DNA of 64,000 nt from Escherichia coli (GTDB lineage Bacteria > Pseudomonadota > Gammaproteobacteria > Enterobacterales > Enterobacteriaceae). The stretch lies in the NCBI RefSeq assembly GCF_046105845.1, contig NZ_CP151004.1, one strand, 5' to 3'. The notes beneath the pieces were generated by a model, which did not search any database, was not told where the DNA came from, and saw nothing but the letters and a program-made list of their open reading frames with translations. Both the position numbers and the translations under genes were made by a program. How positions within the stretch are numbered: the first letter of the stretch is position 1; the number at the start of each line of letters is the position of its first letter. This document shows, piece by piece, positions 11,382 to 42,798 of the stretch.

Positions 11382-11463
11382 AAAAATGGCCAATATCGCT
11401 ATTGGCCCGTCAAAGAGGAATTTCATTTTTTTATTATTATGCCGTCACTTTAAGCGACGGTGT
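11381..11463 (-). ncRNA. chiX: ChiX (MicM/SroB) Hfq-dependent sRNA
   Basis: Minus strand reads ACACCGTCGCTTAAAGTGACGGCATAATAATAAAAAAATGAAATTCCTCTTTGACGGGCCAATAGCGATATTGGCCATTTTTTT, matching recalled ChiX including terminator hairpin and U-tract; in the ybaK-ybaP intergenic region as in K-12. Confidence 0.85.
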
Positions 11464-17111: not shown

Positions 17112-17914
<803 letters not shown>

Positions 17915-18018
17915 ATCAGCATACTTGTCCTTAGCCTTCTGCAGTGACAGCTGGTAGTACAGCGTGCTTCTGGCCAGCCCTGCAGCCTTTAACAGGTCAG
18001 ACTGGCAGTGTCCGCACC

Positions 18019-18549
18019 TCAGGCTCCGGATGACTTTCGTTTTTTCTCCAGCTCCTGGCGCTTTTTTTCCAGGAGATGCTCCTGCATGGCTTTCAGATAT
18101 GCATTTTCTGCGCGAAGATAACGCAGCTCATTCTTCATCTCTTCCGGCGTCATGTTTGCCTCGTTTTCATGGGTATCATCAGAACGGGTCATGCTTTTCT
18201 CCTTCCTGCGCCTGATAAAGGCCTCATTACCAGATTTGCGGTAGCCTTTTATCCAGTTTTTAACCGTGTTGTGGCTGGGAATGTTAAACCGGGCAGCTAC
18301 CCGGGGTAGAGACTCAGAATGCCCGAGAGCATAAAGAACCACGCAAAGTTTATCTTCAGGAGAATAGCTACGCTTGTGTCTGCAATCCAGTGCCCGAGGA
18401 CCGTGAAGAAGAAAAAGATTAATCCAGTGTGAGAGGCTGGTGTGAGAAAGTTGAAAGAGTTTTGCCGTAGAAATGATGCCTGCATGACCAGCCAGGTAAT
18501 GATTTACAGCGGCAAGTTTTACTTCAAATGAATGTTTCATAAACTGCAC
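18019..18549 (-). CDS. IS3-family transposase OrfA (HTH plus leucine zipper)
   Basis: 176-aa ORF; C-terminal heptad leucines (LRYLRAENAYLKAMQEHLLEKKRQELEKK). Confidence 0.85.
   Translation of the reverse strand: MQFMKHSFEVKLAAVNHYLAGHAGIISTAKLFQLSHTSLSHWINLFLLHGPRALDCRHKRSYSPEDKLCVVLYALGHSESLPRVAARFNIPSHNTVKNWIKGYRKSGNEAFIRRRKEKSMTRSDDTHENEANMTPEEMKNELRYLRAENAYLKAMQEHLLEKKRQELEKKRKSSGA
18061..18067 (-). other. A AAA AAG programmed -1 frameshift motif at the end of IS orfA
   Basis: Minus strand reads CTG GAA AAA AAG CGC in the orfA frame, the classical IS3-family slippery heptamer. Confidence 0.6.
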
Positions 18550-18591
18550 CTTCAGATGTCAGATTATGTCCAACATTTGGGGTGCAGTTCA

Positions 18592-18654
18592 GCCATCGCA
18601 TCAGGCATTGAGAGCAAAATGCCAGATGCGGCGTGAACGCCTTATCTGGCCTAC
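18592..18654. repeat. REP/BIME sequences: right half of the interrupted REP plus a second REP
   Basis: gccatcgcatcaggc completes the interrupted palindrome; gccagatgcggcgtgaacgccttatctggcctac (18621-18654) matches the REP consensus. Confidence 0.6.
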
Positions 18655-18668
18655 GAACCGACGATAAC

Positions 18669-19973
18669 TTAACGATCCCAGTAAGACTCTTCCAGGCTGT
18701 CTTCACGCTCCGGCAAGCCGCGCGTTAAACGAGGTGAATGCTGGTTCAGTACCTGATAGCTCACACGGTTAGCATATTTACACACCTGCGCTAACGATGA
18801 ATAAGTTAACCAGGTGAATTTATGTTTGCTGGAGTTTGGTACGTTGCTACGGTGGTAGCTGTTGGCGGTAATATCATGCAGCAACGCTGCCAATGCGCCA
18901 TCCCCTGCTCCGTTAGTGTTCATGATTTTTTCCGGCCCGCCCATGTACGGCGCAATGTGCGAATAGACACGCAGCGGATTCTGGCAATCCTTGTGGCGCA
19001 TGGCGCGGCTAAACTCATACTGGTTAAATTCCGCTATAGCGCCCGGCAGCAGTGGATGCTGGGTTTTACGTTTCGCTTCGTCTTCAGTAAAGCCCGCCAT
19101 ATACAAGCCGATTGGCCCGGCGGTGCACAGCACCAGATCAACCCAGTCCAGCGCCTTGTCAGATGCCAACAACGGATCGCTTTCTCCGGTCAACGCTTCG
19201 GCCTCATCTTCGTTCATCGCAAGGATAGAGACGTGATCTTTGAGGAATTGCTGCCACCACTGCGGATTCTCGGCAATGACAAACTTGGTGCCCAGCGTCA
19301 GCACCACCGGTACGTTATATTTCTTCGCGTACTCAATGGCTTTCATGGTTGCTTCCGGCATGGGTTCACCCGGCTTGCAACGCACCAGATAAGAAGTGAG
19401 AACCAGTGCCGAGGCTCCGGCAATCACATCTTCCGGAATACTTTCAGCCCGCAGCTGGTTCATGTGGCCAGGGCTGATAGCAAAGGTACGTTCCCCGGAC
19501 TCGCCAATCAGCGTAAAGCAACGACCAATCGGGCCATCCACGCCTTGTAGATAGTTAAGATCGGTACGGCTGGAGGTGTTACACAGGTAACGATAGGCAT
19601 AGCTGCCAATTTCAATATTGCTGCACATGACGCCCAGCAGCACCGAACGGTCGTCCGCGAGCACCGAGTAGTTGTGCATAGTGTTACCAATGGTGCCACC
19701 CGCAAATTGATGGGTAATCAGGTTTTTCTGTTTTAGTTCCTGATAAAGCGCTTCGGCTACGTCATCCTCAATCACCAGTGAATGCCCGGCGCTTAATCCA
19801 TAACGCTCAATGAATTCGTCATCCACTTTCGCTTCAATATCGACCAGCGTTTGATCGATACCCACTACCCAGGCGGCGCTGGTTTCGTTTTCTGGCTGGA
19901 ATTGCTGAAGCAGCGGATCGCGTGCATTTACAGGGAAGTAATGTTTGGATTTACGTTTGCCGGGAAATTTCAT
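18669..19973 (-). CDS. gsk: Inosine-guanosine kinase
   Basis: 434-aa ORF matching recalled Gsk. Confidence 0.95.
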   Translation of the reverse strand: MKFPGKRKSKHYFPVNARDPLLQQFQPENETSAAWVVGIDQTLVDIEAKVDDEFIERYGLSAGHSLVIEDDVAEALYQELKQKNLITHQFAGGTIGNTMHNYSVLADDRSVLLGVMCSNIEIGSYAYRYLCNTSSRTDLNYLQGVDGPIGRCFTLIGESGERTFAISPGHMNQLRAESIPEDVIAGASALVLTSYLVRCKPGEPMPEATMKAIEYAKKYNVPVVLTLGTKFVIAENPQWWQQFLKDHVSILAMNEDEAEALTGESDPLLASDKALDWVDLVLCTAGPIGLYMAGFTEDEAKRKTQHPLLPGAIAEFNQYEFSRAMRHKDCQNPLRVYSHIAPYMGGPEKIMNTNGAGDGALAALLHDITANSYHRSNVPNSSKHKFTWLTYSSLAQVCKYANRVSYQVLNQHSPRLTRGLPEREDSLEESYWDR

Positions 19974-20124
19974 GGTTGTTTTTACGGGTGGTTAACTGAG
20001 CGGCGAATGTTAACACAATCTGACGGGAGCGCGCGAGACACAGCCAGTTTCAATATCAGCAGGCGGGATCGCATTTTCATGGCAGTGGTTCCTTACAATG
20101 ACGTAATTTGAAAGGAGTTTTTGC

Positions 20125-21084
20125 ATGAAGCCGGAAAACAAATTACCCGTTCTGGACCTTATTTCTGCTGAAATGAAGACCGTTGTGAATACTCTTCAGC
20201 CGGATTTACCGCCCTGGCCCGCAACGGGAACGATTGCTGAGCAACGACAGTATTACACACTTGAGCGCCGATTCTGGAATGCGGGCGCTCCAGAAATGGC
20301 AACCAGAGCTTACATGGTTCCAACAAAATATGGGCAGGTGGAAACACGTCTCTTTTGTCCGCAGCCAGATAGTCCGGCGACGCTATTTTATTTGCATGGC
20401 GGCGGTTTTATTCTCGGCAATCTCGATACCCACGATCGCATCATGCGCCTGCTGGCAAGCTACAGCCAATGTACGGTGATTGGCATTGATTACACCCTTT
20501 CACCTGAAGCGCGTTTTCCGCAAGCAATAGAGGAAATTGTGGCTGCCTGTTGTTATTTCCACCACCAGGCGGAAGATTATCAAATCAATATGTCCCGCAT
20601 TGGCTTTGCCGGTGATTCCGCAGGTGCCATGCTGGCGCTCGCCAGTGCGTTGTGGTTGCGTGATAAACAGATCGATTGCGGTAAAGTTGCGGGCGTTTTG
20701 CTGTGGTATGGGCTTTACGGATTACGGGATTCCGTGACTCGTCGTCTGTTGGGCGGTGTCTGGGATGGCTTAACGCAACAGGATTTACAGATGTATGAAG
20801 AGGCGTATTTAAGCAACGACGCGGACCGCGAGTCGCCGTATTACTGCCTGTTTAATAATGATCTCACTCGCGAAGTTCCGCCCTGTTTTATTGCCGGGGC
20901 GGAGTTCGATCCGCTGCTGGATGACAGCCGTCTGCTTTACCAGACGTTAGCGGCGCATCAGCAGCCCTGTGAGTTCAAACTCTACCCAGGCACGCTGCAC
21001 GCCTTTTTGCATTATTCACGGATGATGAAAACCGCCGACGAGGCTCTTCGCGACGGCGCTCAGTTCTTTACCGCTCAGCTTTAA
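20125..21084 (+). CDS. aes: Acetyl esterase
   Basis: 319-aa ORF with HGGG and GDSAG motifs. Confidence 0.93.
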
Positions 21085-22043
21085 CGATACGCGGCAACAA
21101 GATTAGCCATCATCTCGATATGTTCCGGCATGGCATTAAGCGCCGGAATATATTCATATTTTTTCCCGCCCGCACCGAGGAAGACCTCACGGTTTTGCTC
21201 GGCAATCTCTTCCAGCGTCTCCAGACAATCCGCAGCAAAGCCCGGGCACATCACCTGAATATGACCTACGCCTTTTTCTCCGAGCATTTTCAGCGTTTCG
21301 TCGGTATAAGGCATCAGCCAGGGTTCCCGACCAAAGCGCGACTGAAAGGTCATCATCACTTTTTCCGGTGCCATCCCCAGTGCGGAAGCCAGTTCACGAG
21401 TCGTTGTGCGGCAACGTTGCGGATAATCATCGCCTTCATCTGCATAACGCTGGGGAATGCCATGATAAGAGAGCAGCAGCAGATCCGGCTCGCCATGTTT
21501 AGCGAAAGAAGCACGTACGCTGTTCGCCAGTGCATTAATGTAATCGTGGTTATCGGCGTAATCACGAATAAACGATATCCCCGGAATGCTACGTTTGCGC
21601 GCCAGAATGCGTGCCAGTTCATCCCATACCGCACCGACCGTTGAACAGGAGTATTGCGGATAAAGCGGCAGCACCACAATATGATCTACATGCTCTGCCA
21701 GGAGTTCATCTACGGCGCTTTCCAGTGATGGCGAGCCGTAGCTCATTCCCAGCGCTACGGGCGTCTCCGGTAAACGTTGTGCCAGCGCCTGCTGTTGCTG
21801 GCGGCTGTAAACCATCAGCGGCGAGCCACCTTCCATCCAGACAGAAGCATACAGCTTCGCCACACGCGGCGAGCGCAGTGGCAAAATCACGCCGCGCAGC
21901 AACGGCCACCATAACAACCGTGAGGTATCAACCACGCGTCTGTCGCTTAAAAATTGTTTCAGATAGCGTTTTACCGCTTCAGGTGTGGGGGCATCGGGCG
22001 TACCCAGGTTTGCCAGCAGGATACCGGTTTTAGTCTGACGCAT
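21081..22043 (-). CDS. hemH: Ferrochelatase
   Basis: 320-aa ORF matching recalled HemH. Confidence 0.95.
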
Positions 22044-22174
22044 TACCGCCTCTTATCGATTCAACTTGTTGATAATTGTAGCGGAAAAGTGAAGAAGAAG
22101 AACTAATTGCTGTGAGAGGTATTGTCTGAGGAGGATGAGCAGACCTGCCCGAAAGCAGATCTGCTGCGGCTTGA

Positions 22175-22891
<717 letters not shown>

Positions 22892-22961
22892 TCAAGAAAG
22901 GCACCTGGGGCTGAAACGGTTAATGGCGAGATAATTTGCGGAAAGTACAGATGATGAAAAG

Positions 22962-22995
22962 AAAAATGCCGGATGACACGAAGGTCATCCGGCAT
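22962..22995 (-). terminator. Intrinsic terminator after htpG
   Basis: On the minus strand, hairpin GCCGGATGAC...GTCATCCGGC followed by a U-tract. Confidence 0.6.
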
Positions 22996-22999
22996 GACA

Positions 23000-24874
23000 T
23001 CAGGAAACCAGCAGCTGGTTCATACGACGAATAAACAGGTTCGGATCTTCCAGCGTGCCGCGTTCTGCCAGCAGCGCCTGATCCAGTAGCAGTTCTACCC
23101 ACTCGCTGAACTTCGCTTCATCTTCAGTATCTGCCGCACGTTTCACCAGTACGTGATCCGGGTTCAGTTCGAAGATGTATTTCACTTCTGGCACTTTCTG
23201 GCCCGCCGCAGCGAACAGTTTCGCCATCTGAGTGCTCATTTCGTCCGCGTCGGTCGAAACGATCGCTGGCGTATCGGTCAGACGGTGAGTCAGACGGACA
23301 TCTTTCACGCGCTCGCCGAGCAGGGCTTTCACACGGTCGATGAACGGAGTCAGTGCTTTCTCCGCTTCTTTCGCGCTCTCATCAACTTCGTCAGCCAGTT
23401 TTTCCAGCGACTCGTCAACTTTAGACACCGACTGGAACGGTTTACCGTCGAACTCAGTCAGATAGTTCATCATCCACTCATCGATGCGGTCGGAAAGTAG
23501 CAGAACTTCGATGCCTTTCTTACGCAGCAGTTCCAGGTGCGGGCTGCTCTTCGCTGCCGCATAGCTGTCTGCAGTGATGTAGTAGATTTTCTCCTGCCCT
23601 TCTTTCATGCGGGAAACGTAGTCTTCCAGAGACACGGTCTGCGCAGAAGAATCGGTATGGGTAGAAGCAAAACGCAGCAGTTTGGCGATCGCTTCCTGGT
23701 TAGCGAAATCTTCCGCCGGACCTTCTTTCAGTACCAGGCCAAACTGTTGCCAGAAGGTCTGGTATTTTTCCGCGTCGTCTTTCGCCAGTTTTTCCAGCAT
23801 TTGCAGCACACGCTTGGTCAGCGCATTGCGCAGGTTACGCGTTACCGTGCTGTCCTGGAGGATTTCACGGGAAACGTTCAGCGGCAGATCGCTGGAGTCA
23901 ATCAGACCACGCACGAAGCGCAGATAGTTCGGCATGAACTGTTCTGCGTCGTCCATGATGAACACACGCTGGACGTACAGTTTCAGGCCATGTTTATGAT
24001 CGCGGTTCCACATATCCCACGGTGCCTGAGACGGAATGTACAGCAGGCTGGTGTACTCCTGCTTACCTTCAACGCGGTTGTGGCTCCAGGTCAGCGGATC
24101 GTTAAAGTCGTGGGCGATGTGTTTGTAGAACTCTTTGTACTCTTCATCGGTGATTTCCGACTTGTTACGAGTCCACAGCGCCTGCGCTTTGTTGATTTTC
24201 TCCCAGGAGATAACGGTTTCGCCGTCTTTCTCTTCGCGTTTTTCGATCTCTACCGGCAGCGCGATATGGTCGGAATATTTGCTGATGATGGAACGCACAC
24301 GCCAGTCATCGAGGAACTCGTCTTCGCCTTCACGCAGATGCAGGGTGATTTCAGTACCACGATCTTCTTTAGTGATGTCGGCAACGGTGTATTCACCTTC
24401 GCCAGCCGATTCCCAGAAGACGCCGTTTTCTGGTTTTTCGCCTGCCGCGCGAGTACGCACGGTCACTTTGTCAGCCACGATAAACGCAGAGTAGAAACCA
24501 ACACCAAACTGACCGATCAGCTGGCTGTCTTTCGCCTGGTCAGAACCCAGGGATTCGAGGAATGATTTGGTGCCGGATTTAGCGATAGTCCCCAGATGGT
24601 CAATCACTTCGTCGCGGGTCATCCCCACGCCGTTATCGGAGATGGTCAGCGTGCGCTTGTCTTTATCGAAAGAGACACGAACGCGCAGTTCGCCATCACC
24701 TTCGTACAGATCCGGGTTAGAGAGCGCACGGAAACGCAGCTTGTCCGCCGCATCGGAGGCGTTAGAGATAAGCTCACGCAGGAAGATTTCTTTATTGGAA
24801 TAGAGAGAATGGATCATCAGGTGCAGAAGCTGTTTCACTTCTGACTGAAAACCACGAGTTTCTTGTCCTTTCAT
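23000..24874 (-). CDS. htpG: Hsp90-family chaperone
   Basis: 624-aa ORF matching recalled HtpG. Confidence 0.97.
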
Positions 24875-24925
24875 GTAGGTCTACCTCAATAATGCCATTT
24901 TAAGGTTAAAAACAGGATGTGGGAG

Positions 24926-24954
24926 AGATGGGGACAAGGGAGAATAATTTCAAG
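24926..24954 (-). promoter_or_regulatory. sigma32 heat-shock promoter of htpG
   Basis: Minus strand reads CTTGAAA (-35) ... CCCCATCT (-10), matching the sigma32 consensus. Confidence 0.7.
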
Positions 24955-24983
24955 CGAGAGCAGGTGATCCTGCTCTCGTTTGC

Positions 24984-25588
24984 TTAAAAACGAATCTTAT
25001 GACGCCCGGCAAGGGAGTGTGACAGCGTGGTGCCATCGACCATTTCCAGCTCGCCGCCAACCGGTACGCCATGAGCGATTCGGCTGGCTTCCACGTCATA
25101 TTGCGCGCAAAGCTCGGCAATGTAGTTAGCGGTAGCTTCACCTTCAACCGTGGGGTTGGTGGCGAGGATCACTTCAGTGATTTTTTCCTCTGCCAGACGC
25201 TGTTCCAGACGATCAAGCCCGATATCATCCGGACCGATGCCGTCCAGCGGTGACAGGTGTCCCATCAACACAAAATAACGGCCTGAAAACTGCCCCGTCT
25301 GCTCAATGGCGTAGATGTCCGCCGGACTCTCCACCACGCAGATTTGACCGTTTTCCTGACGACGCGGATTCGAACAGATGTTACAGACTTCCTGTTCGGT
25401 GAAGGTGCGGCAATCGGCGCAGTGGCCGATTTCCGACATCGCCCGGGTGAGCGCCTGCGCCAGACGCATCCCGCCGCTACGATCGCGCTGAAGCAGCGTG
25501 AACGCCATACGCTGCGCCGACTTCGGGCCAACGCCCGGCAGACAGCGCAGTGCTTCCATAAGCTGTGTTAACAGCGGGCTGGTTTGCA

Positions 25589-25589
<1 letters not shown>
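24984..25589 (-). CDS. recR: Recombination protein RecR
   Basis: 201-aa ORF with C4 zinc finger and Toprim region; start overlaps the ybaB stop (TGATG). Confidence 0.95.
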
Positions 25590-25933
<344 letters not shown>

Positions 25934-25970
25934 TCACGTTAAGGATGACGAACGTAAGCTGTGCTTACGA

Positions 25971-27902
25971 TCAAATGGGGCGGATACTTTCTTCATCCAG
26001 CTCCGCATCGAAGAACCGACGCAGGGTCTGAATATTATTATCCGCAATAATGGACTCGCGCGCCTGCGCAAGTTTTTCTTCGTATATCGCCTGACGCCAT
26101 TCCAGCGGCGTACGCACCGCGGGATTATCATCTTCAACGATAGTCAGTTCAACCGTTGAACCTTTTAACGTGCTCAACGCTTCAGCCAGTTTTTGCTGTG
26201 CACCGCGGTTGTTCAAATGCCGCTGAGAGGAGCGCAAATGCAGACATACTGCGTTGTCGCTCTCCTCTTTCCAGGCATTTAGCGCCACCTGTTCGACCAG
26301 TTTTGGTAGCGAAAGTTGGCTCACCTGTGCCGCCCACGGGTCGCGCTCAATGGCTTCTGCCGCCAGCTTCGCCGCCAGTTCCGGCGTTTTTTCATGTTCC
26401 AGCGCTTTTTTTAGCGCCTTCGGCGTGGCGACCACTTCTTTTTGCTGCATCACTGGAGTGGTGGCCTTCCAGCGATACGCTTCTTTTTTGGCTGGCGCTT
26501 TTTCCAGCGCCGATGGCACCGGGCGCGCCTGAACGCGATCGGTGACCGAAGCCAGTCTTTCCAGCGCAGCGTTATTCACCGGCCGCGCGCGGGTAGCGGC
26601 TGCCGGTTCACTCTTTTTTGCTTTGGTTGCTCCCTGCACGCGCTGCAACTGCTGGCGCGCCGCCAGCACCTGGCTGGTGGTTTCCGGGAGCGGTACAGTC
26701 GGTGCCTGCTGCGGCGCTGATTGCGGTTGCGGCGGCACCTGTGTTGGCGTCATTACTGCCGTTGGCGCGACGGGCGCAAAGGACTGGCGTGGCACTTCTG
26801 GCTCAGGCAGCGGCATACGCGGATGGAACGCCAGCGCGCGAAGCAGCGTCATCTCAACGCCCATACGGCGGTCTGGCGCATACGGTAATTCTTTGCGACC
26901 AATCAACAGCGTCTGATAGTAAAGCTGAATATCCGTCGGCGGTATGGTGCGCGCCAGTTCACGCATCCGCAGCTCGATGGCAGCCATGTCGTTGCCAAGT
27001 GCAGCAGGCGAAAGTTGTACCATCGCAATACGATGCAACAGACCGAGCATTTCCACCAGCAACGCTTCCCACTCGATACCACGGGCAGCGGCTTCATTAA
27101 TCAGCGCCATTACGCGCTCGCCGTTGGCCTCGACCATCGCTTCAACCAGCGACAGCGCCTGATCGTCGTCAAGCGTACCCAGCATCGCACTGACCGCCTG
27201 AGTTGAAACCTGGCCGTCACCGCTGGCAATCGCCTGGTCGGTCAGACTTAAGGCATCTCGCAGGCTGCCTTCAGCGGCGCGTGCCAGCAATTGCAGCGCC
27301 CGCGGCTCGTGAGCGATATGTTCTTCGTTGAGGATGTGCTCAAGCTGATGGCGAATTTGCTCGACATCCAGCGCCTTGAGATGAAATTGCAGACAACGTG
27401 ACAAAATCGTCACCGGCAATTTCTGCGGATCGGTCGTCGCCAGCAGAAACTTAACGTGCTCCGGCGGCTCTTCAAGGGTTTTTAACAGTGCGTTAAAGCT
27501 GTGGCGCGACAGCATATGCACTTCGTCGATCAAATAAACTTTGAAACGACCACGCGCCGGAGCGTACTGGACGTTATCCAGCAGGTCGCGGGTATCTTCA
27601 ACTTTGGTGCGCGAGGCGGCGTCGATTTCAATCAGATCGACAAAGCGCCCCTGCTCGATTTCACGACAGTTATCGCACACGCCGCACGGCGTCGCGGTAA
27701 TGCCGGTTTCGCAGTTTAGCCCCTTCGCCAGCAGTCGGGCGATAGAGGTTTTTCCGACGCCACGGGTACCGGAAAAAAGATAAGCATGATGAATACGCCC
27801 TAACGACAAGCCGTTCGCCAGTGCGGTCAGCACATGTTCCTGGCCGACGACGTCAGCAAAGGTTTGTGGGCGCCATTTTCGGGCTAAGACCTGATAACTC
27901 AT
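25971..27902 (-). CDS. dnaX: DNA polymerase III subunits tau and gamma
   Basis: 643-aa ORF with AAA+ motifs (GTRGVGKT) and internal frameshift site. Confidence 0.97.
   Translation of the reverse strand: MSYQVLARKWRPQTFADVVGQEHVLTALANGLSLGRIHHAYLFSGTRGVGKTSIARLLAKGLNCETGITATPCGVCDNCREIEQGRFVDLIEIDAASRTKVEDTRDLLDNVQYAPARGRFKVYLIDEVHMLSRHSFNALLKTLEEPPEHVKFLLATTDPQKLPVTILSRCLQFHLKALDVEQIRHQLEHILNEEHIAHEPRALQLLARAAEGSLRDALSLTDQAIASGDGQVSTQAVSAMLGTLDDDQALSLVEAMVEANGERVMALINEAAARGIEWEALLVEMLGLLHRIAMVQLSPAALGNDMAAIELRMRELARTIPPTDIQLYYQTLLIGRKELPYAPDRRMGVEMTLLRALAFHPRMPLPEPEVPRQSFAPVAPTAVMTPTQVPPQPQSAPQQAPTVPLPETTSQVLAARQQLQRVQGATKAKKSEPAAATRARPVNNAALERLASVTDRVQARPVPSALEKAPAKKEAYRWKATTPVMQQKEVVATPKALKKALEHEKTPELAAKLAAEAIERDPWAAQVSQLSLPKLVEQVALNAWKEESDNAVCLHLRSSQRHLNNRGAQQKLAEALSTLKGSTVELTIVEDDNPAVRTPLEWRQAIYEEKLAQARESIIADNNIQTLRRFFDAELDEESIRPI
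26613..26619 (-). other. dnaX: dnaX programmed -1 frameshift site (A AAA AAG) producing gamma
   Basis: Minus strand reads GCAGGGAGCAACCAAAGCAAAAAAGAGTGAACCGGCAGCC...: SD-like AGGGAG upstream, heptamer, then a stem-loop; the -1 frame stops at GAG TGA. Confidence 0.85.
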
Positions 27903-28030
27903 TGGCAGGCTCTGAAACGCTGGAAGGTGGATTCACGAAGGGGTAATGCTAACACAGCCCCGTCAGAACGGCGAGGCTGAATGCACATCTTGTGCTGTCC
28001 GTAGCGTGGGCAGCACAAGACTGGCGATAA

Positions 28031-28582
28031 TTAATGGCCCGGGAACGGGACAAGGCTGTAGCTGGTAATGCCCTGTTTTTCGAGACGCTGTTCGCCGCCG
28101 AGATCGAACAGGTTGATAATGAACGCAGCGTCAGCCACTTCACCACCCAGACGACGGATCAGTTTAACGGTCGCTTCGATAGTGCCGCCGGTTGCCAGCA
28201 GATCGTCCACCACCAGTACTTTGTCGCCCGGTTTGATGGCATCAACGTGGATTTCCAGCTGATCGGTGCCGTATTCCAGATCGTAAGTTTCACTGATGGT
28301 TTCACGCGGCAGTTTGCCCGGTTTACGGACCGGTACAAAGCCAACGCCCAGACCCAGAGCTACCGGAGCGCCAAACAAGAAGCCACGCGCTTCGGTGCCG
28401 ACAACTTTGGTAATGCCCGCATTTTTGTAACGCTCAACCAGCAAGTCGATGCTGAGAGCGTAAGCTTTCGGGTCTTCCAGTAAGCTGGTGACATCACGGA
28501 AAAGAATGCCGGGTTTTGGGTAGTCCTGAATGCTTTTGATGCTATTTTTGAGATACTCAAGCTGCTGTGCAGTCGCGGTCAT
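28031..28582 (-). CDS. apt: Adenine phosphoribosyltransferase
   Basis: ORF trimmed to [25 protein letters not shown]... (183 aa). Confidence 0.95.
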
Positions 28583-28734
28583 AAGTGTATGCCTGCTTGT
28601 TACGGTGGTACTCACGGCGCGTTTTAAACGTATCAAAAGTAACAGTTGTTTAACCTTTGACCGCCTGCGCCTGTGCTCGAAAACGCCAGAATGTACTGGC
28701 TGTACGCAATAATTGCAACTGCGATTGTTGTGCT

Positions 28735-29112
28735 TCAGTGCTTTTCTTGCTTTTCATCAATCACCGGAATTCGCCACATATAAAAAAGCAAACAGGCGAG
28801 AATTACCAGCAACATGATGCGCACCCATGGCATCTGGACGAACCACAGAGAAATTGCAAACGTGAGCAAAATAAGCAAAATCGCCCGCGGTTTGACGCCG
28901 CGCGGCATCGCATGATGTTTCTGCCAGAAACGTAGATAGCTGCCAAACCATGAGCGGTACAGCAACCAGGCGTGAAAGCGCGGGGAAGAACGGGCAAAGC
29001 ACCAGGCCGCCAGCAGGATAAACGGCGTCGTCGGTAATACCGGTAATACCACGCCCAGCGTACCCAGCACTACCGCCAGCCAGCCAATGATGATTAAAAT
29101 GATTCGTTGCAT
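28735..29112 (-). CDS. ybaN: Inner membrane protein YbaN (DUF454)
   Basis: 125-aa hydrophobic ORF in the conserved position. Confidence 0.9.
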
Positions 29113-29181
29113 ATTGAGTGTTGTCAGCTTACAGAGTGGCTACTTTAGCATAACAATTATCATTTTCATTGAGGTCTTATC

Positions 29182-29709
29182 GTGAAAACCGCCCTGCTGC
29201 TGGAAAAACTGGAAGGACAGCTCGCTACGCTGCGTCAGCGTTGTGCCCCGGTAGCGCAATTTGCCACGCTAAGCGCCCGTTTTGACAGGCACCTTTTTCA
29301 GACTCGTGCGACAACACTGCAGGCTTGTCTCGATGAGGCGGGCGATAATCTGGCTGCGCTTCGTCATGCCGTTGAGCAACAGCAACTGCCGCAAGTCGCC
29401 TGGCTGGCAGAACATCTGGCGGCGCAACTGGAGGCTATAGCGCGTGAAGCCACAGCCTGGTCGCTACGCGAGTGGGACAGTGCGCCACCGAAAATTGCCC
29501 GCTGGCAGCGTAAACGTATTCAGCATCAGGATTTTGAGCGGCGGCTACGTGAGATGGTAGCCGAACGTCGAGCCCGCCTGGCGCGGGTGACCGATCTCGT
29601 GGAACAGCAAACGCTGCATCGTGAAGTGGAAGCCTATGAAGCGCGCCTGGCACGCTGCCGCCATGCGCTGGAAAAAATCGAAAACAGGTTAGCGCGTTTA
29701 ACCCGCTAG
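29182..29709 (+). CDS. priC: Primosomal replication protein N''
   Basis: 175-aa ORF matching recalled PriC. Confidence 0.92.
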
Positions 29710-29722
29710 CAATGGAGAAAGT

Positions 29723-29887
29723 ATGTCACTGGAAAATGCCCCTGACGATGTCAAACTGGCTGTCGATTTGATTGTGCTGCTGGAAGAAAATCAGATCCCA
29801 GCCCGCACCGTGCTGCGCGCGCTGGATATTGTGAAGCGTGATTATGAAAAGAAGTTACAGAGCGATGAGGCTTCGCAAAGCGAGTAA
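29723..29887 (+). CDS. ybaM: Small protein YbaM (DUF2496)
   Basis: 54-codon [57 protein letters not shown] read by hand; below the ORF-track cutoff; GGAGA 7 nt upstream. Confidence 0.8.
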
Positions 29888-29925
29888 AAAATAAAGGGCG
29901 GCATCACTGTCGCCCTTTATTGTCC

Positions 29926-32900
29926 TTACCCTACCGCTGGTGTCGGATCGTCGCCTTTGTAGTCGCGTTTGACTTCCGTCACCTCATCGCCCTTCTCGTT
30001 GTGCAGATGCACTTCAAGCTGGTTAAAGGCAATGTTGATATCGTTTTCACGGCACAGCTGATCGATAGTACGGTTCAGCTCATCGACAGTACGGCTACGG
30101 TCACGCAGTTCACGCACATACAGACGCAGCTCATGATCCAACGTGCTGGCACCAAACGCCGTAAAGAAGACTTCCGGCATTGGTTCGTGCATCACCCTTG
30201 GGTGCTCAGTCGCCGCCTTCAGTAACACTTTACGCACTTTTTCCAGATCGGAGCCATAGGCCACGCCGAGACGGATCACCAGACGCGTAGTAGTGTCAGT
30301 CAACGACCAGTTGATCAGACGCTCGGTAACAAACGCTTTATTCGGGATGATCACTTCTTTGCGATCGAAATCGGTAATCGTTGTCGCACGAATACGGATC
30401 TTACTTACTGTCCCCGAGAAGCTACCAATGGTTACCGTATCGCCAATACGCACCGGACGTTCGAACAGAATGATCAAACCGGAGACGAAGTTACCAAAAA
30501 TTTCTTGTAAACCAAAACCAAGACCTACGGATAATGCTGCGGCCAGCCACTGGAGTTTATCCCACGAGACGCCCAGCGATCCGAACACCGTCATCGCACC
30601 AACGGCAATAATGATGTAGTTAAGGATGGTAGTAATGGCATACGACGCGCCCTGGCGCATATTCAGTCGCGAGAGCACCAGCACTTCCAGCAAACCAGGC
30701 AGGTTGCGAATCAACGCCCAGGCCACCATTGAGGCGATAATCGCAAACAACAGACTGCCCATGGTGACGTTTTTCACCACCGCAGCACCAGCTTCAGTAC
30801 CGTTGTAATGCCAGAGCGTGATGCTGTCCAGATAGCTGAACACGGTGATCAAATCGGACCAAATTGCCCAGAACATGACACCGAACAGCGCAAACATCAG
30901 CAACATGGTAATACGCAGCGTCTGCTGGTTAACCTGCTCCAGTGCAATGGTGGGTTCTTCCGGCGGTTCGGCACCTTCTGCGCCCTCTTTCACCAGATTC
31001 TGCCGACGCGCCAGCGCACGACGCCAGGCGATACGCCGCGCCGCTACGCTTAAGCCGCGCAATACCGTCTGGTACAGCAGGTTCCAGATGATCACCAAAT
31101 AAACGGTTTCAATCCAACGCCCGGAGAGGCGCAGCGTGGTGTAGAAATAACCCGTGGCGGTCAGCACCATCAACGCAATCGGGATAATCGACAGTACGGT
31201 AATGGTGACCAGTCGCATGGTGTGCGACTCTTTATCACGCCAGCTTTCGCGGCACATCGGCCATACCAGGAAGGCAATCAGCAGCAGGTTGAAGAAAATC
31301 ATCGCCTGCCCCAGCACATCATCCATCAGATGCAGCGGGGAAAGTTCTGCCACCACAGACCAGAAATGGATAGGCAGCAATGCGAGACTGATGCGGACAA
31401 TTTGCCGACGCCAGTGGCTGGTCTGCTGTTCCGGCATACCAAAGTGACGCACGGCAACGCCGTTTTTCTCCAGTACCTTCCAGCACAGGCCAAACACCAG
31501 CCAGAAAATCGCCAGTTTTTTACTGAACGACCATAGCAGTTCGCTGATGTTGAGCTGCATGGTCAACAGAATCAGGCCAACCGCGAGAATAATCAGGCAC
31601 ACCGGCAGCGCACGGATCAGGTCGATAAGGATCGCTTTTGGTGTGTTGAGCTGGCTGTCGTTACGCAGGGAACCCACAGCGGAAGCCAGTTTTTGTTGAT
31701 ACGCTTTCAGCCAGCCCAGACGCCAGTGGATCAGCCCGGCAATCAACAGCAGCGGCAAACCGGCGAGGAAAGCGATAAAAACGGCAGGCCAGGCTTTTTC
31801 CCAGTTCACCGTGATTTTCATCGACTTAAATTCATCTTTCAGGCTTTGCGGGAACGCTTTGATCCAGTCCCAGTCCATTGGACGGTTACTGTTCACCCAA
31901 AAGATTTGCTGAGTCAGGATGGATTTCAGGTTTTTCGACACACTCATTAACTGCTGCTGGTTGATTTGCAGGTTAATGGCCATCATCAGCTGATTACCCA
32001 ACTGTTTGTTGAGTTGATCCAGCAATTCGCGACGCATATCAACCACTTGCAATAACGCATCGTGAACTTCGCTGTTGACTTCGTTGGCGTGACCTTCTTC
32101 CAGTTTGTTGACGAACGCATCGCTCTGGAAGAGTGCATCACGCTGCTGGTTGACTTCAAACTGTTCGAGACGCAAATCCGCGATGCGGTTGGTCATGTTT
32201 TCCAGTTCATCCGCCGAGGGCAGCGTTTGTTGTTGCTGGTAAAGGATACGAGACAACAGCAGGCTGCCCTTCAGGACGGCAATCTGCTCTTTAATATTGC
32301 GTTCCGATTGCAGCGCCCGCTCCAGCCAGTTTTTGACTTTAATGTTTTGCTGCATCAACTGATTACCGTTTTCAGTCGCGGTAATCAGACGCTGACTTAA
32401 CTGCTGGTTAATTTCCAGTTCCTGCTTCACCAGCGGATTAGCCTGAATACGCGCGGCTTCATCCGGGGAGACGGCTTCCTGCGCCGTTTTTTCGGTTAAA
32501 GTCAGGCGCTTGCTGTTTACTGCTTCTTGCAACAGCTGCAACTGGTGCTCCAGACGGGCGCTGTTCGCCGTCACGTAATCCCGTTGCTTTTGCAAGGTAT
32601 CCTGTAAGACTGTGTTCCCTTCCAGGCTTTTACGCTGTTGATCAATCTCGGCATTCAGCAAAGCCTGCTGAGCCTGCATTAACACTTTCTGGCTGGGACG
32701 TAAGGCAGTCTCGCCGACATCAGTCCCATCCAGACGACTGCGAATTTGTTGCAGCTGCTGCGAAGCGTTATACATCGCATTTTGCACGCGTTCGGGCTGC
32801 GTCTGTAACGAAACCAGCTGGCTGTTATAAGACGCCAGATCGTTTTGTGCGTTTTGCAAATCGTCCAGCGCCTGGGCAACGCGAGTTTCCAGCTGGCGCA

Positions 32901-33288
32901 ACGAAAGCGTGCTCAGAATTTTGCGCGTTTCTTCGTCGTTATCGACATCGCTAAGTGCTGTTAACGCTGCGGTCGCCTGGCGCATTTTTTCCGGCGCTTC
33001 AGCGACTTTTTGCCGTAGCTGAACTGTCTCTTCTTTTACGCGATCGATTTTATCGAGGGTGGCTAATGTATCTGTCAGATCCTGCTGCACCAGTTTGTCC
33101 TGAGCAGAAAGATCTTTTTGTTTATTTAGTGAGTCAAGTTGCGCCTGCAGGTCCGCTTTTGTCGGCAGATCACCATTCGATGACGCCCGCGCAAACGCCG
33201 TGTTCTGGCATAACAAGACAAAAACAAAAGCAATAAATGCTGAAAAAACAAAATGCCGTGATCGTTTGTAATACTGGAACATAGTCAT
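29926..33288 (-). CDS. mscK: Potassium-dependent mechanosensitive channel MscK
   Basis: 1120-aa ORF: signal peptide, long coiled-coil periplasmic region, C-terminal MscS-like domain. Confidence 0.95.
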   Translation of the reverse strand: MTMFQYYKRSRHFVFSAFIAFVFVLLCQNTAFARASSNGDLPTKADLQAQLDSLNKQKDLSAQDKLVQQDLTDTLATLDKIDRVKEETVQLRQKVAEAPEKMRQATAALTALSDVDNDEETRKILSTLSLRQLETRVAQALDDLQNAQNDLASYNSQLVSLQTQPERVQNAMYNASQQLQQIRSRLDGTDVGETALRPSQKVLMQAQQALLNAEIDQQRKSLEGNTVLQDTLQKQRDYVTANSARLEHQLQLLQEAVNSKRLTLTEKTAQEAVSPDEAARIQANPLVKQELEINQQLSQRLITATENGNQLMQQNIKVKNWLERALQSERNIKEQIAVLKGSLLLSRILYQQQQTLPSADELENMTNRIADLRLEQFEVNQQRDALFQSDAFVNKLEEGHANEVNSEVHDALLQVVDMRRELLDQLNKQLGNQLMMAINLQINQQQLMSVSKNLKSILTQQIFWVNSNRPMDWDWIKAFPQSLKDEFKSMKITVNWEKAWPAVFIAFLAGLPLLLIAGLIHWRLGWLKAYQQKLASAVGSLRNDSQLNTPKAILIDLIRALPVCLIILAVGLILLTMQLNISELLWSFSKKLAIFWLVFGLCWKVLEKNGVAVRHFGMPEQQTSHWRRQIVRISLALLPIHFWSVVAELSPLHLMDDVLGQAMIFFNLLLIAFLVWPMCRESWRDKESHTMRLVTITVLSIIPIALMVLTATGYFYTTLRLSGRWIETVYLVIIWNLLYQTVLRGLSVAARRIAWRRALARRQNLVKEGAEGAEPPEEPTIALEQVNQQTLRITMLLMFALFGVMFWAIWSDLITVFSYLDSITLWHYNGTEAGAAVVKNVTMGSLLFAIIASMVAWALIRNLPGLLEVLVLSRLNMRQGASYAITTILNYIIIAVGAMTVFGSLGVSWDKLQWLAAALSVGLGFGLQEIFGNFVSGLIILFERPVRIGDTVTIGSFSGTVSKIRIRATTITDFDRKEVIIPNKAFVTERLINWSLTDTTTRLVIRLGVAYGSDLEKVRKVLLKAATEHPRVMHEPMPEVFFTAFGASTLDHELRLYVRELRDRSRTVDELNRTIDQLCRENDINIAFNQLEVHLHNEKGDEVTEVKRDYKGDDPTPAVG

Positions 33289-33415
33289 GATGAATGAAGG
33301 TTTCTGAACCTGAAGAACGACCTGAAAAAGTCAAACCGCAAGAATATCACGACGCAGTGAACCAGAATAGCAACGACGAAAATGTCCAGGAAAAATCCTG
33401 GAGTCAGATTCAGGG

Positions 33416-34063
33416 TTATTCGGTAATGGCAGGGTTACGAAGCGTGGGACACAGGAGATACATCTCCAGTAAGATGGCGACGTAATCGCGGGCTTCTTTT
33501 TTAAGATCAAAAGATTGCGGGGCAAAGAGCCAGTTTTCCATCAGGCCGGAAATATAGCCGCGCATAATAATTGCTGCCCGACGCGTCATTAAATCCGCAG
33601 GCAACATTTTCGCTTCAATACAATGTTTTAACGTTTGTTCTATACGGTCATAACTTTCCAGACAGAGATTACGTTGTGCCTGTTGCACAACAGCCATTTC
33701 TCCGACAAATTCGCATTTGTGGAATATAATCTCCATCAATAATCGACGCCGTTCTTCTGTCACCGTGGATTCAAGAACATGAATTAATATCTCTCTTAAT
33801 ACTGAGAGTGGATCGCCAGGGAATTTTGCCTGATACTCAAGCTCTAGTTCACCAATATTGGATTCTGACAGTTCCCAGATCTCACTGAACAAATCCGACT
33901 TGTCTTTAAAATGCCAGTAGATTGCACCGCGCGTAACGCCAGCTGCTTTTGCAATCTCGCCCAGCGAGGTGGATGATACCCCCTGCTGTGAGAAAAGACG
34001 TAGAGCCACATCGAGGATGTGTTGGCGCGTTTCTTGCGCTTCTTGTTTGGTTTTTCGTGCCAT
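33416..34063 (-). CDS. acrR: TetR-family repressor of acrAB
   Basis: 215-aa ORF, divergent from acrA. Confidence 0.96.
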
Positions 34064-34091
34064 ATGTTCGTGAATTTACAGGCGTTAGATT

Positions 34092-34115
34092 TACATACAT
34101 TTGTGAATGTATGTA
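34092..34115. promoter_or_regulatory. AcrR operator palindrome in the acrR-acrA divergent promoter region
   Basis: 24-bp palindrome TACATACATTTGTGAATGTATGTA. Confidence 0.8.
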
Positions 34116-34204
34116 CCATAGCACGACGATAATATAAACGCAGCAATGGGTTTATTAACTTTTGACCATTGACCAATTTGAAATCGGACACTCGAGGTTT
34201 ACAT

Positions 34205-35398
34205 ATGAACAAAAACAGAGGGTTTACGCCTCTGGCGGTCGTTCTGATGCTCTCAGGCAGCTTAGCCCTAACAGGATGTGACGACAAACAGGCCCAACAA
34301 GGTGGCCAGCAGATGCCCGCCGTTGGCGTAGTAACAGTCAAAACTGAACCTCTGCAGATCACAACCGAGCTTCCGGGTCGCACCAGTGCCTACCGGATCG
34401 CAGAAGTTCGTCCTCAAGTTAGCGGGATTATCCTGAAGCGTAATTTCAAAGAAGGTAGCGACATCGAAGCAGGTGTCTCTCTCTATCAGATTGATCCTGC
34501 GACCTATCAGGCGACATACGACAGCGCGAAAGGCGATCTGGCGAAAGCCCAGGCTGCAGCCAATATCGCGCAATTGACGGTGAATCGTTATCAGAAATTG
34601 CTCGGTACTCAGTACATCAGTAAGCAAGAGTACGATCAGGCTCTGGCTGATGCGCAACAGGCGAATGCTGCGGTCACTGCGGCGAAAGCTGCCGTTGAAA
34701 CTGCGCGGATCAATCTGGCTTACACCAAAGTCACCTCTCCGATTAGCGGTCGCATTGGTAAGTCGAACGTGACAGAAGGCGCATTGGTACAGAACGGTCA
34801 GGCGACTGCGCTGGCAACCGTGCAGCAACTTGATCCGATCTACGTTGATGTGACCCAGTCCAGCAACGACTTCCTGCGCCTGAAACAGGAGCTGGCAAAT
34901 GGCACGCTGAAACAAGAGAACGGCAAAGCCAAAGTGTCGCTGATCACCAGTGACGGCATTAAGTTCCCGCAGGACGGTACGCTGGAATTCTCTGACGTTA
35001 CCGTTGATCAGACCACCGGGTCTATCACCCTACGCGCTATCTTCCCGAACCCGGATCACACTCTGCTGCCGGGTATGTTCGTGCGCGCACGTCTGGAAGA
35101 AGGGCTTAATCCAAACGCTATTTTAGTCCCGCAACAGGGCGTAACCCGTACGCCGCGTGGCGATGCCACCGTACTGGTAGTTGGCGCGGATGACAAAGTG
35201 GAAACCCGTCCGATCGTTGCAAGCCAGGCTATTGGCGATAAGTGGCTGGTGACAGAAGGTCTGAAAGCAGGCGATCGCGTAGTAATAAGTGGGCTGCAGA
35301 AAGTGCGTCCTGGTGTCCAGGTAAAAGCACAAGAAGTTACCGCTGATAATAACCAGCAAGCCGCAAGCGGTGCTCAGCCTGAACAGTCCAAGTCTTAA
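34205..35398 (+). CDS. acrA: Multidrug efflux membrane fusion lipoprotein AcrA
   Basis: ORF trimmed to MNKNRGFTPLAVVLMLSGSLALTGC... (397 aa) with lipobox. Confidence 0.97.
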   Translation: MNKNRGFTPLAVVLMLSGSLALTGCDDKQAQQGGQQMPAVGVVTVKTEPLQITTELPGRTSAYRIAEVRPQVSGIILKRNFKEGSDIEAGVSLYQIDPATYQATYDSAKGDLAKAQAAANIAQLTVNRYQKLLGTQYISKQEYDQALADAQQANAAVTAAKAAVETARINLAYTKVTSPISGRIGKSNVTEGALVQNGQATALATVQQLDPIYVDVTQSSNDFLRLKQELANGTLKQENGKAKVSLITSDGIKFPQDGTLEFSDVTVDQTTGSITLRAIFPNPDHTLLPGMFVRARLEEGLNPNAILVPQQGVTRTPRGDATVLVVGADDKVETRPIVASQAIGDKWLVTEGLKAGDRVVISGLQKVRPGVQVKAQEVTADNNQQAASGAQPEQSKS

Positions 35399-35417
35399 CT
35401 TAAACAGGAGCCGTTAA

Positions 35418-38570
<3,153 letters not shown>

Positions 38571-38587
38571 TACAACGTGTAATCACT

Positions 38588-38612
38588 AAGGCCGCGCAAG
38601 CGGCCTTTTTTA
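38588..38612 (+). terminator. Intrinsic terminator after acrB
   Basis: Hairpin aaggccgcgcaagcggcctt followed by TTTTTTAT. Confidence 0.7.
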
Positions 38613-39115
38613 TGCATAACCGACGAACATTAAGGAGTCATTGAACCACCAACTCAGGATCTCATACGAAAACCAGTATTAACCTCGCATAAAATTCATA
38701 AAAAATACTGATTGTTAGTTAATTTATATTAAGTAGCGCTAATAGATTTAATAATCCATAATCATTTAGAGGCTATTCTTAATTATTTGCGGTAATTCTT
38801 TATTCATTCCTCGGTTATTACGTCATATTCAGAGCAATCCTGGTATTAGTGCCACCAATTTCATCTGGCGATAATCCTGAAATGTTATGAATAGTTCGAG
38901 CAGACTGCTTTTACCTGCTGCGGGTTAGTGCTAGTATGAAAAAATGAGTCCTGTCCCGATTCCTTCCTAATTGTAATTTTTCGTAATAATGCGATGAAAA
39001 CCTGCAAAGAGTGGCTTATAGTTAAGCTAACAAACGAGAGGGCAAGTCCAGGTCAGTAAGTTTTTTCCATCCCGAAAGGTGTCCGTTAGTTCAACCACTA
39101 AGAAGGGGACGCGTT

Positions 39116-39490
39116 ATGGATGAATACTCACCCAAAAGACATGATATCGCACAGCTTAAGTTTCTCTGTGAAACCCTGTATCATGACTGTCTTGCAAACC
39201 TTGAAGAAAGCAATCATGGCTGGGTTAACGACCCAACCTCGGCGATCAACCTCCAGTTGAATGAACTGATTGAGCATATTGCGACCTTCGCACTTAATTA
39301 CAAAATTAAGTATAATGAAGACAATAAGCTCATTGAGCAGATCGACGAATATCTGGATGACACCTTTATGTTGTTCAGCAGTTATGGTATTAATATGCAG
39401 GATCTTCAGAAATGGCGGAAGTCAGGTAATCGACTATTCCGTTGTTTTGTCAATGCGACGAAAGAGAATCCTGCGAGTTTATCTTGTTAG
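39116..39490 (+). CDS. tomB: Hha toxicity modulator TomB
   Basis: 124-aa ORF matching recalled TomB/YbaJ. Confidence 0.93.
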
Positions 39491-39515
39491 AATTATTACA
39501 ACCATGGGTAGAAGT

Positions 39516-39734
39516 ATGTCCGAAAAACCTTTAACAAAAACCGATTATTTAATGCGTTTACGTCGTTGCCAGACAATTGACACGCTGGAGCGTGTTATCG
39601 AGAAAAATAAATACGAATTATCAGATAATGAACTGGCGGTATTTTACTCAGCCGCAGATCACCGCCTCGCCGAATTGACCATGAATAAACTGTACGACAA
39701 GATCCCTTCCTCAGTATGGAAATTTATTCGCTAA
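39516..39734 (+). CDS. hha: Haemolysin expression-modulating protein Hha
   Basis: ORF trimmed to [72 protein letters not shown] (72 aa). Confidence 0.95.
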
Positions 39735-39905
39735 TAAATAATTCGCTTTCGGAGCTATAACCGGCTGTTTATTAAGAATTTTATACTTTTTCGCCATGAA
39801 GACATACCCTATGTGATCTTTATCACACAGATGTAATGGGAACGTTCTCTTCACTGACTTTTCGTCTTACTGTGTTGCCGCATTTTCAGCAACCGGAGGT
39901 CAGTA

Positions 39906-40457
39906 ATGAGCACAGAAAAAGAAAAGATGATTGCTGGTGAGTTGTATCGCTCGGCAGATGAGACGTTATCTCGCGATCGCCTGCGCGCTCGTCAGCTTAT
40001 TCACCGATACAATCATTCCCTGGCGGAAGAGCACACATTACGCCAGCAAATTCTCGCTGATTTATTCGGTCAGGTGACAGAGGCTTATATTGAGCCAACG
40101 TTTCGCTGTGATTATGGCTATAACATTTTTCTCGGCAATAATTTTTTCGCCAACTTCGATTGCGTGATGCTTGATGTCTGCCCTATTCGCATCGGTGATA
40201 ACTGTATGTTGGCACCAGGCGTTCATATCTACACGGCAACACATCCCATCGACCCTGTAGCACGTAATAGCGGTGCTGAACTGGGGAAACCCGTCACCAT
40301 CGGTAATAACGTCTGGATTGGCGGACGCGCGGTCATTAACCCTGGTGTGACCATTGGTGATAACGTCGTGGTAGCCTCAGGTGCAGTTGTCACAAAAGAT
40401 GTCCCGGACAACGTTGTCGTGGGCGGTAATCCAGCCAGAATCATTAAAAAATTGTAA
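39906..40457 (+). CDS. maa: Maltose O-acetyltransferase
   Basis: 183-aa ORF with hexapeptide-repeat C-terminus. Confidence 0.93.
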
Positions 40458-40572
40458 CCAGTTTTTCGCAACTGTTATGCAAAATCGTGGCAAATCTGTT
40501 ACTTTCCCTCTACTATTCCCACGTTAAAATAGGGTGTTCCCTGGAAAGTTGCAGATACCACGAAGGCAAACG

Positions 40573-41043
40573 ATGACCGAAATACAACGCCTGCTGACCG
40601 AAACAATTGAGTCTCTAAATACCCGCGAAAAACGCGACAACAAACCCCGCTTTAGTATCAGTTTTATCCGTAAACATCCGGGGCTGTTTATCGGTATGTA
40701 TGTTGCTTTTTTTGCCACCCTGGCGGTGATGTTGCAGTCCGAAACGCTTTCAGGCTCTGTCTGGCTACTGGTTGTATTATTTATCCTGCTTAATGGTTTC
40801 TTCTTTTTCGATGTCTACCCACGCTACCGCTATGAAGATATCGACGTGCTGGATTTCCGCGTTTGCTATAACGGCGAATGGTACAACACGCGCTTTGTAC
40901 CTGCCGCGCTGGTTGAAGCCATCTTGAACTCTCCGCGTGTCGCGGATGTTCAAAAAGAACAACTGCAAAAAATGATCGTCCGTAAAGGTGAATTGTCTTT
41001 TTACGATATTTTTACTCTTGCTCGCGCCGAATCAACATCTTAA
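40573..41043 (+). CDS. ylaC: Inner membrane protein YlaC
   Basis: ORF trimmed to [15 protein letters not shown]... (156 aa). Confidence 0.85.
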
Positions 41044-41200
41044 GTTAGAGTTACATACCAGGCGTAAAGCTCTGCGCCTGGTCAAATGACAACGTTCGTT
41101 TCCACCCATCACTTGATGAAATACCGGCTCTACCTCCTTATCTCCTGCCAGCCTTTTTCCACAATCGGATATACTTTCTCTACACTGTGTTAATAAGGAT

Positions 41201-42757: not shown

Positions 42758-42798
42758 ATTGTAGGGCTGACGGCACGCCGCACAGCCCGTCACGCTAC

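Follow-up and report, generated by a model that had tools for sequence, protein, structure and literature searches.

Anatomy and conservation of the dnaX ribosomal frameshifting element in an Escherichia coli genome

Tau and gamma are clamp-loader subunits of the DNA polymerase III holoenzyme. Their ratio in this replicative clamp loader is set by the dnaX cassette, one of the principal models in the study of -1 ribosomal frameshifting. Tandem -1 slippage requires a heptamer in the X_XXY_YYZ register. On dnaX, about 50% of ribosomes shift in vivo and terminate one codon later, and the ratio of gamma to tau is about 1:1 (PMC5009743). An upstream AGGGAG acts as a 5' stimulator, and in model mRNAs mutation of this Shine-Dalgarno (SD) sequence lowers frameshifting from 84% to 50%, deletion of the hairpin leaves 20%, and a non-slippery heptamer leaves 2% (PMC5389563). 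Slippage takes place mainly during translocation of two tRNA-Lys, and when aminoacyl-tRNA is limiting a slow route with one tRNA comes into play (PMC6771820). Positioned 11-12 nt from the P-site codon, the dnaX hairpin inhibits both translocation and A-site tRNA binding (PMC7282821).

Related systems share parts of this arrangement. IS3-family OrfAB elements (for example IS911, IS150 and the IS1397 copy in the DNA analysed here) have A_AAA_AAG and tandem tRNA-Lys slippage in common with dnaX (PMC5009743), but their shift joins two open reading frames (ORFs), usually at low efficiency, and so yields the transposase as a longer protein, whereas dnaX makes a shorter protein at about 50%, its shifted frame ending after one codon. 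In copA, as in dnaX, the -1 shift is followed by a near-immediate stop and a short N-terminal product, CopA(Z), stands beside the full-length protein; unlike in dnaX, the heptamer is C_CCA_AAG, in another gene. The dnaX genes of Thermus thermophilus and Caulobacter crescentus likewise give tau and a shorter gamma from one gene at about 1:1, as would be the case here (PMC5009743).

The dnaX gene and the elements of its cassette

The window, by which we mean the whole stretch of 64,000 nucleotides of E. coli DNA that was analysed, is collinear with positions 455824..513896 of K-12 MG1655 save for a few indels, and its gene order apt-dnaX-ybaB-recR-htpG-adk is that of K-12. Among complete E. coli genomes, the nearest has an identity of only 99.2-99.3%. 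At one end the window holds part of a siiEA island (Table 1), which K-12 lacks and 959 of 5426 genomes carry. The only long ORF at the site under study matches NCBIfam NF005942 (DNA polymerase III subunit gamma/tau) over residues 1-643 at 982.5 bits against a cut-off of 613, and TIGR02397 at 445 bits against a cut-off of 250. Among PDB chains, tau (8gj0_B) is matched over residues 1-643, a 431-aa chain (8giy_B) over residues 1-430 and gamma (1jr3_A) over residues 1-373. The match to the DnaX family is thus full-length and includes the AAA+ clamp-loader N-terminal module. The genes ybaB and recR, both identified with NCBIfam, follow dnaX downstream on its strand.

Table 1. Positions, in window coordinates, of the dnaX gene, the parts of its cassette and other features of the window
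Feature	Position	Strand	Remarks
dnaX zero-frame ORF, tau of DNA polymerase III	25971..27902	minus	643 codons, ATG start; only long ORF at the site
Predicted gamma coding region	26608..27902	minus	zero frame through AAG (26615..26613), then -1 slip
End of gamma after the slip, GAG	26613..26611	minus	
End of gamma after the slip, UGA stop	26610..26608	minus	
Full Rfam RF00382 match	26574..26638	minus	gene nt 1265-1329; same gene coordinates as the RefSeq sequence_feature
Shine-Dalgarno-like AGGGAG	26630..26635	minus	from sequence; inside the RF00382 match
Slippery heptamer A_AAA_AAG	26613..26619	minus	gene nt 1284-1290; Lys429-Lys430
Purine-rich linker AGUGA, heptamer to stem	26608..26612	minus	5 nt; holds the -1 frame UGA stop
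3' stem-loop, GC-rich	26578..26607	minus	11 bp with bulges; ViennaRNA and Rfam consensus structure
Stem-loop, 5' arm	26607..26596	minus	
Stem-loop, loop UACCC	26595..26591	minus	
Stem-loop, 3' arm	26590..26578	minus	
copA	7654..10158	plus	C_CCA_AAG at 7854..7860; -1 frame then GGC UAA
IS1397 (IS3-family) insertion	17160..18595		between gsk and ybaL
siiEA giant-adhesin and TolC-family type I secretion island, part	1..5135		

An earlier note on this DNA had described an SD-like AGGGAG, an A AAA AAG heptamer and a downstream GC-rich stem-loop on the minus strand. Each of the three is present with the right register and spacing, and the heptamer lies exactly where the note had placed it. Read from the window, the minus-strand sequence around the site is GUGCAGGGAGCAACCAAAGCAAAAAAGAGUGAACCGGCAGCCGCUACCCGCGCGCGGCCGGUGAAU, and the minus strand of positions 26500..26740 contains CGUGCAGGGAGCAACCAAAGCAAAAAAGAGUGAACCGGCAGCCGCUACCCGCGCGCGGCCGGUGAAUAAC. 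The heptamer falls in codons 428-430 of the 643, and its first base, gene nt 1284, is the third of a codon, so that the zero frame reads GC[A AAA AAG] AGU GAA and the register is X_XXY_YYZ. From the known rRNA sequence we derive that AGGGAG can base-pair with 3'-UUCCUC-5', close to the 3' end of 16S rRNA; a whole-window Rfam scan detected no rRNA genes in the window. The spacer between AGGGAG and the heptamer is 10 nt, and the first nucleotide of the stem (26607) is at +12 from the first base of the P-site AAA codon (26618). The linker is the AGUGA quoted for the wild type (PMC7282821).

Translation bore out the claim that the -1 frame terminates at once. From the first A of the heptamer it reads K K E stop, and the -1 product has 431 aa, a C-terminus of ...ATKAKKE and Glu as its last residue. 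All the sequence-level features that define an E. coli-type dnaX cassette, or RF00382, were found at this site.

The earlier note had also called for alignment with K-12 dnaX, and a disrupted heptamer or stem-loop would have counted against its reading. We found the 140 nt centred on the cassette to be identical to K-12 MG1655, with no disruption of either element. The two cassettes have in common their SD and 10-nt spacer, heptamer, AGUGA linker and 11-bp bulged hairpin, as well as a UGA in the -1 frame and a gamma of 431 aa; no difference falls inside the element, and its position in the gene (nt 1265-1329) is the same. Over the whole of dnaX, 23 of 1932 nt differ from K-12 (98.81% identity), 22 of them synonymous and one changing an amino acid, M578T. 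The differences nearest to the cassette are at gene nt 1161 and 1380. We rejected the substitution-free stretch between them (gene nt 1162-1379) as evidence: computed from 23 differences in 1932 nt, a 60-nt segment with none has a chance of about 48%.

In K-12, the annotation comprises tau (NP_415003.1) and a joined gamma CDS of 1295 nt (YP_009518751.1). The latter maps to 27902..26608 of the window, the same extent as the gamma region here. The note had concluded that the early stop gives the gamma subunit, and the comparison of sequences supports this reading: the host gene is dnaX, and K-12, with an identical site, has both tau and gamma CDSs annotated.

Chance, folding and conservation of the stem-loop

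A slippery heptamer is easily found in this DNA. The window contains 23 copies of AAAAAAG where 13.9 are expected, so the heptamer by itself is uninformative, and we rejected its count as evidence. Three copies lie inside dnaX, of which one is in register; in the other two, AAAAAAG itself begins at a first codon position and so misses the register. The abundance of the motif would speak for a rival reading, in which the site is a chance combination within a Lys-Lys coding stretch, without recoding, and dnaX makes tau only. The composite AGGGAG-N10-AAAAAAG, however, has one occurrence in the window, with one mismatch allowed, against 0.05 expected.

Folding energy bears on the same question. 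Folding of the RNA downstream of the heptamer, a check that the earlier note had proposed, gave a bulged hairpin at 26607..26578 with the structure ((((((.(((((.....))).)).)))))) at -18 kcal/mol (ViennaRNA). Compared with dinucleotide shuffles its z-score was -2.1 to -2.4, with 5-8 of 200 shuffles equally good, and by length z was -1.0 for an 81-nt context and -2.35 for 40 nt. These values are only modest because the region is GC-rich, and a z of only about -2 is also compatible with a chance combination. We therefore did not take free energy (z = -1.0 to -2.35) to prove the hairpin and relied on covariation and the Rfam model; thermodynamics provides modest supporting evidence that alone would not prove the structure. 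Rfam RF00382 (DnaX ribosomal frameshifting element) matched over its full model, 1-65, at 96.8 bits (gathering score 35) with E = 1.9e-21, and its consensus structure is the minimum free energy fold of the hairpin; a second scan, of the whole window, gave the match again.

Within E. coli the element is far more constant than the gene that carries it. The gene dnaX is present in 5424 of 5426 complete genomes, but is at least 99% identical over its whole length in only 234 of the 5424. By contrast, 5372 of 5423 complete genomes have the 65-nt element without any change, the threshold of at least 99% identity permitting no mismatch at this length. RefSeq routinely annotates a 'DnaX frameshifting element' at gene nt 1265-1329.

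The stem-loop was examined across Enterobacterales by scanning one genome per GTDB species for AGGGAG-N10-AAAAAAGAGTGA. Since this pattern fixes everything upstream of the stem, conservation there is by construction and the stem-loop alone is an independent test. The scan yielded 75 dnaX-type Enterobacterales cassettes with enough flanking sequence to extract, representing 63 distinct 70-mers with the window's own counted in, from genera that include Citrobacter, Enterobacter, Kosakonia, Pluralibacter, Pantoea, Erwinia, Mixta, Serratia and Buttiauxella. It also gave about 45 non-dnaX matches, mostly in Collinsella, which were left out of the alignment; by their translated sequence (MPKKSES...), the Collinsella matches are the ribosome-binding site and GTG start of an RpoD-like sigma factor.

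In the covariation alignment of 38 distinct Enterobacterales sequences, the outer helix CCGGC/GCCGG was retained, with 6/6 pairs in essentially all 38. Overall, 86% of alignment cells were paired, compared to 28-53% when the 3' partner was slid by 1-3 columns, and the covariation score was 0.134 against 0.064 for shuffles, with 0 of 500 shuffles reaching 0.134. The closing pair (32-61) is A-U in 22 sequences and G-C in 15, and single double changes from G-C to A-U occur at 36-57 (Mixta) and 42-50 (Enterobacter ENT03). At the closing pair, the A-to-G change in column 32 is synonymous (GAA/GAG), but the U-to-C change of its partner replaces Val with Ala, which points to selection on RNA pairing rather than on the protein. 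The covariation of this pair probably reflects few evolutionary events, separating Enterobacteriaceae from Erwiniaceae and Buttiauxella.

The inner helix behaves differently. Sequences of Enterobacter and of the Pantoea type fit an alternative register of the inner stem (41-52, 42-51) more closely than that of E. coli, so the inner helix varies between genera while the outer helix is constant. In a sliding conservation profile of 68 Enterobacterales loci, the cassette scored 0.88-0.98, the stem arms 0.91, the loop 0.73 and the upstream linker region 0.50-0.66, a contrast that is modest and partly a consequence of the search pattern.

Taken together with the rarity of the composite motif and the RF00382 E-value, the identity of the site with the experimentally characterised K-12 site, the invariance of the element in 99% of E. 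coli genomes while the whole gene varies and the compensatory changes in the stem leave a chance combination with negligible probability; it is refuted for practical purposes. The case is carried by the combination of elements, by homology and by covariation. Anatomy, register, fold, K-12 identity, conservation and covariation are shown directly by the sequence data, none of which speaks against the identification, and we assign a probability of about 0.97 to the site being the canonical E. coli dnaX programmed -1 ribosomal frameshift cassette.

Proposed mechanism and other routes to gamma

By analogy with K-12, where the experiments in the literature were done, the frameshift itself, its efficiency of about 50% and its kinetic mechanism would be expected to hold here. 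On a ribosome that reaches A_AAA_AAG, tRNA-Lys would be bound to the P-site codon AAA and to the A-site codon AAG, while the upstream AGGGAG would then be paired with the 3' end of 16S rRNA and the downstream 11-bp stem-loop, at a distance of 11-12 nt from the P-site codon, would face the mRNA entrance. With the hairpin slowing EF-G-driven translocation and the SD duplex adding strain, both tRNAs could move back by one base and pair again, on AAA AAA. The slip would be made by about half of the ribosomes, which would then read GAG and stop at UGA to give gamma, a protein of 431 aa with domains I-III and one extra Glu. Ribosomes that do not slip would stay in frame and make tau, 643 aa long, with the DnaB-binding and polymerase-alpha-binding domains.

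Gamma could also arise by transcriptional slippage on the A run or by proteolysis of tau, with the cassette being incidental. Both routes exist, the first in Thermus thermophilus and the second in Caulobacter crescentus (PMC5009743). Where those species use them, the present locus has ribosomal-frameshift signals: the -1 stop comes directly after the heptamer, and the SD and hairpin lie at spacings that stimulate ribosomal slippage. Efficient bacterial transcriptional slippage has been described for about nine A or T (PMC5009743), and a Thermus-type run of about nine or more at the recoding site is not found here, the run being of six A. Moreover, in K-12, which has the identical sequence, a synonymous non-slippery heptamer reduces the -1 product to 2% (PMC5389563), and proteolysis of the Caulobacter type is unnecessary given the identical K-12 cassette. 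We therefore regard these routes as extremely improbable at this locus and retain programmed ribosomal frameshifting as the probable source of gamma.

The cassette is already known and is textbook material; it opens no new biological question. That it is intact matters only for annotation, in which dnaX should have a tau CDS of 643 aa and, as its second product, a joined CDS for the 431-aa gamma with the -1 slip at 26613.

Other candidate and known shift sites in the window

A synonymous CTG-to-CTA change at dnaX codon 497 creates a run of seven A at 26412..26406. The run reads A_AAA_AAA in the -1 register and lies 208 nt downstream of the canonical site. The CTA allele is an E. coli minority, with the exact 61-mer found in 329 of 4791 matched genomes, and runs of seven A are reported to be under-represented in E. 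coli genes (PMC4066793). After the run, the -1 frame continues for four codons, SAGT-stop. Were ribosomes or RNA polymerase to slip there at a low level, the product would be a DnaX of about 503 aa lacking exactly the alpha-binding domain V, which in PDB chains begins at residue 499-500; if it accumulated, it would be a third DnaX isoform in the lineage. We consider such a hypothetical isoform very unlikely. No stimulatory signals were seen there, and the change is most likely a neutral synonymous variant.

Two further -1 frameshift sites were noted in the window, in copA and in the IS1397 transposase (Table 1). The copA region is identical to K-12, where its -1 product, the 70-aa CopA(Z), is annotated. 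In IS1397, orfA has A_AAA_AAG in register (18067..18061) and orfB lies in the -1 frame; the same insertion carries a 'programmed frameshift' annotation in another genome.

Additional -1 frameshift sites in the window, and a run of seven A in dnaX

Within the stretch between gsk and ybaL, comparison with K-12 revealed an insertion of IS1397 that K-12 lacks. The element carries its own slippery heptamer in orfA, and the -1 frame of orfA holds orfB, such that a -1 shift would yield an OrfAB fusion of ~450 aa. In strain WP8-S18-ESBL-07, an IS1397 insertion at the identical site is annotated with 'programmed frameshift'.

The copA site counts as a third -1 frameshift site within the window. After C_CCA_AAG, the -1 frame reads GGC UAA, giving the 70-aa soluble product CopA(Z). 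Gene nucleotides 150-330 are identical in sequence to those of K-12, whose annotation includes CopA(Z) as a second product of copA.

Downstream of the canonical heptamer, dnaX contains a run of seven A residues generated by a CTG-to-CTA change that is synonymous relative to K-12. Slippage into the -1 frame here would lead to a stop after SAGT and a product of ~503 aa. We identified no stimulatory signals for this run. Of the 4791 E. coli genomes that gave a match, 329 carry the 61-mer around it without any change. The predicted end at ~503 aa coincides with the start of tau domain V.

Coordinates of features in the window
Feature	Position	Strand	Remarks
TolC-family outer-membrane protein gene	3471..4826	minus	within window 1..5135
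copA	7654..10158	+	
copA heptamer	7854..7860	+	C_CCA_AAG, in register
sroB (ChiX)	11380..11463	-	Rfam, gathering-level match
IS1397 insertion	17160..18595	minus	IS3-family, 1436 bp, between gsk and ybaL
IS1397 orfA heptamer	18061..18067	minus	A_AAA_AAG, X_XXY_YYZ register
dnaX 7-A run	26406..26412	minus	codons 497-499, A_AAA_AAA in -1 register
4.5S SRP RNA	43272..43368	-	Rfam, gathering-level match
sraA	61008..61103	+	Rfam, gathering-level match

The frameshift pattern in other species

The scan pattern AGGGAG-N10-AAAAAAGAGTGA also matched in many Collinsella species (loci L005, L006, L015, L016, L037 and ~30 more). We rejected these as frameshift sites, as the pattern there consists of a true ribosome-binding site followed by a GTG start codon. 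Judged from its translated sequence, the gene that begins at this GTG is a 448-aa RpoD-like sigma factor (MPKKSES...). The Collinsella matches show that the motif by itself is not diagnostic of a frameshift site.

In Candidatus Pantoea persica (L055), the dnaX cassette retains the SD-like element, the heptamer and the -1 UGA, but has either a shorter stem-loop or none (GCCGGCAGCGUCGGC...). The stimulator may be weakened in this symbiont.

Differences from K-12 and relation to sequenced E. coli

K-12 has no counterpart, adjoining ybaT, of window 1..5135. Besides the TolC-family gene, this segment matches the end of a siiEA gene, encoding a BapA-related giant adhesin, that extends past the window edge. 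Of 5426 complete E. coli genomes, 959 carry the segment, the closest copy being 98.1% identical. A second segment of 360 bp (10155..10514), in which we found no convincing ORF, stands in place of 727 bp of K-12 (508152..508878) that include ybaQ. Two intergenic regions, adk-hemH (22121..22173) and mscK-rsmS/ybaM (29869..29925), are short and did not align to the longer K-12 sequences (157 and 227 bp, respectively), differences that probably reflect REP/BIME variation. Strain EC556 carries IS200C inside the mscK-rsmS gap.

Among the 5426 complete RefSeq E. coli genomes, none exceeded 99.2% identity to the 25 kb of window 19001..44000 or 99.3% identity to dnaX, and the source lineage is therefore not closely represented among them. 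The window positions of sraA, sroB (ChiX) and the 4.5S SRP RNA agree with those expected from K-12.
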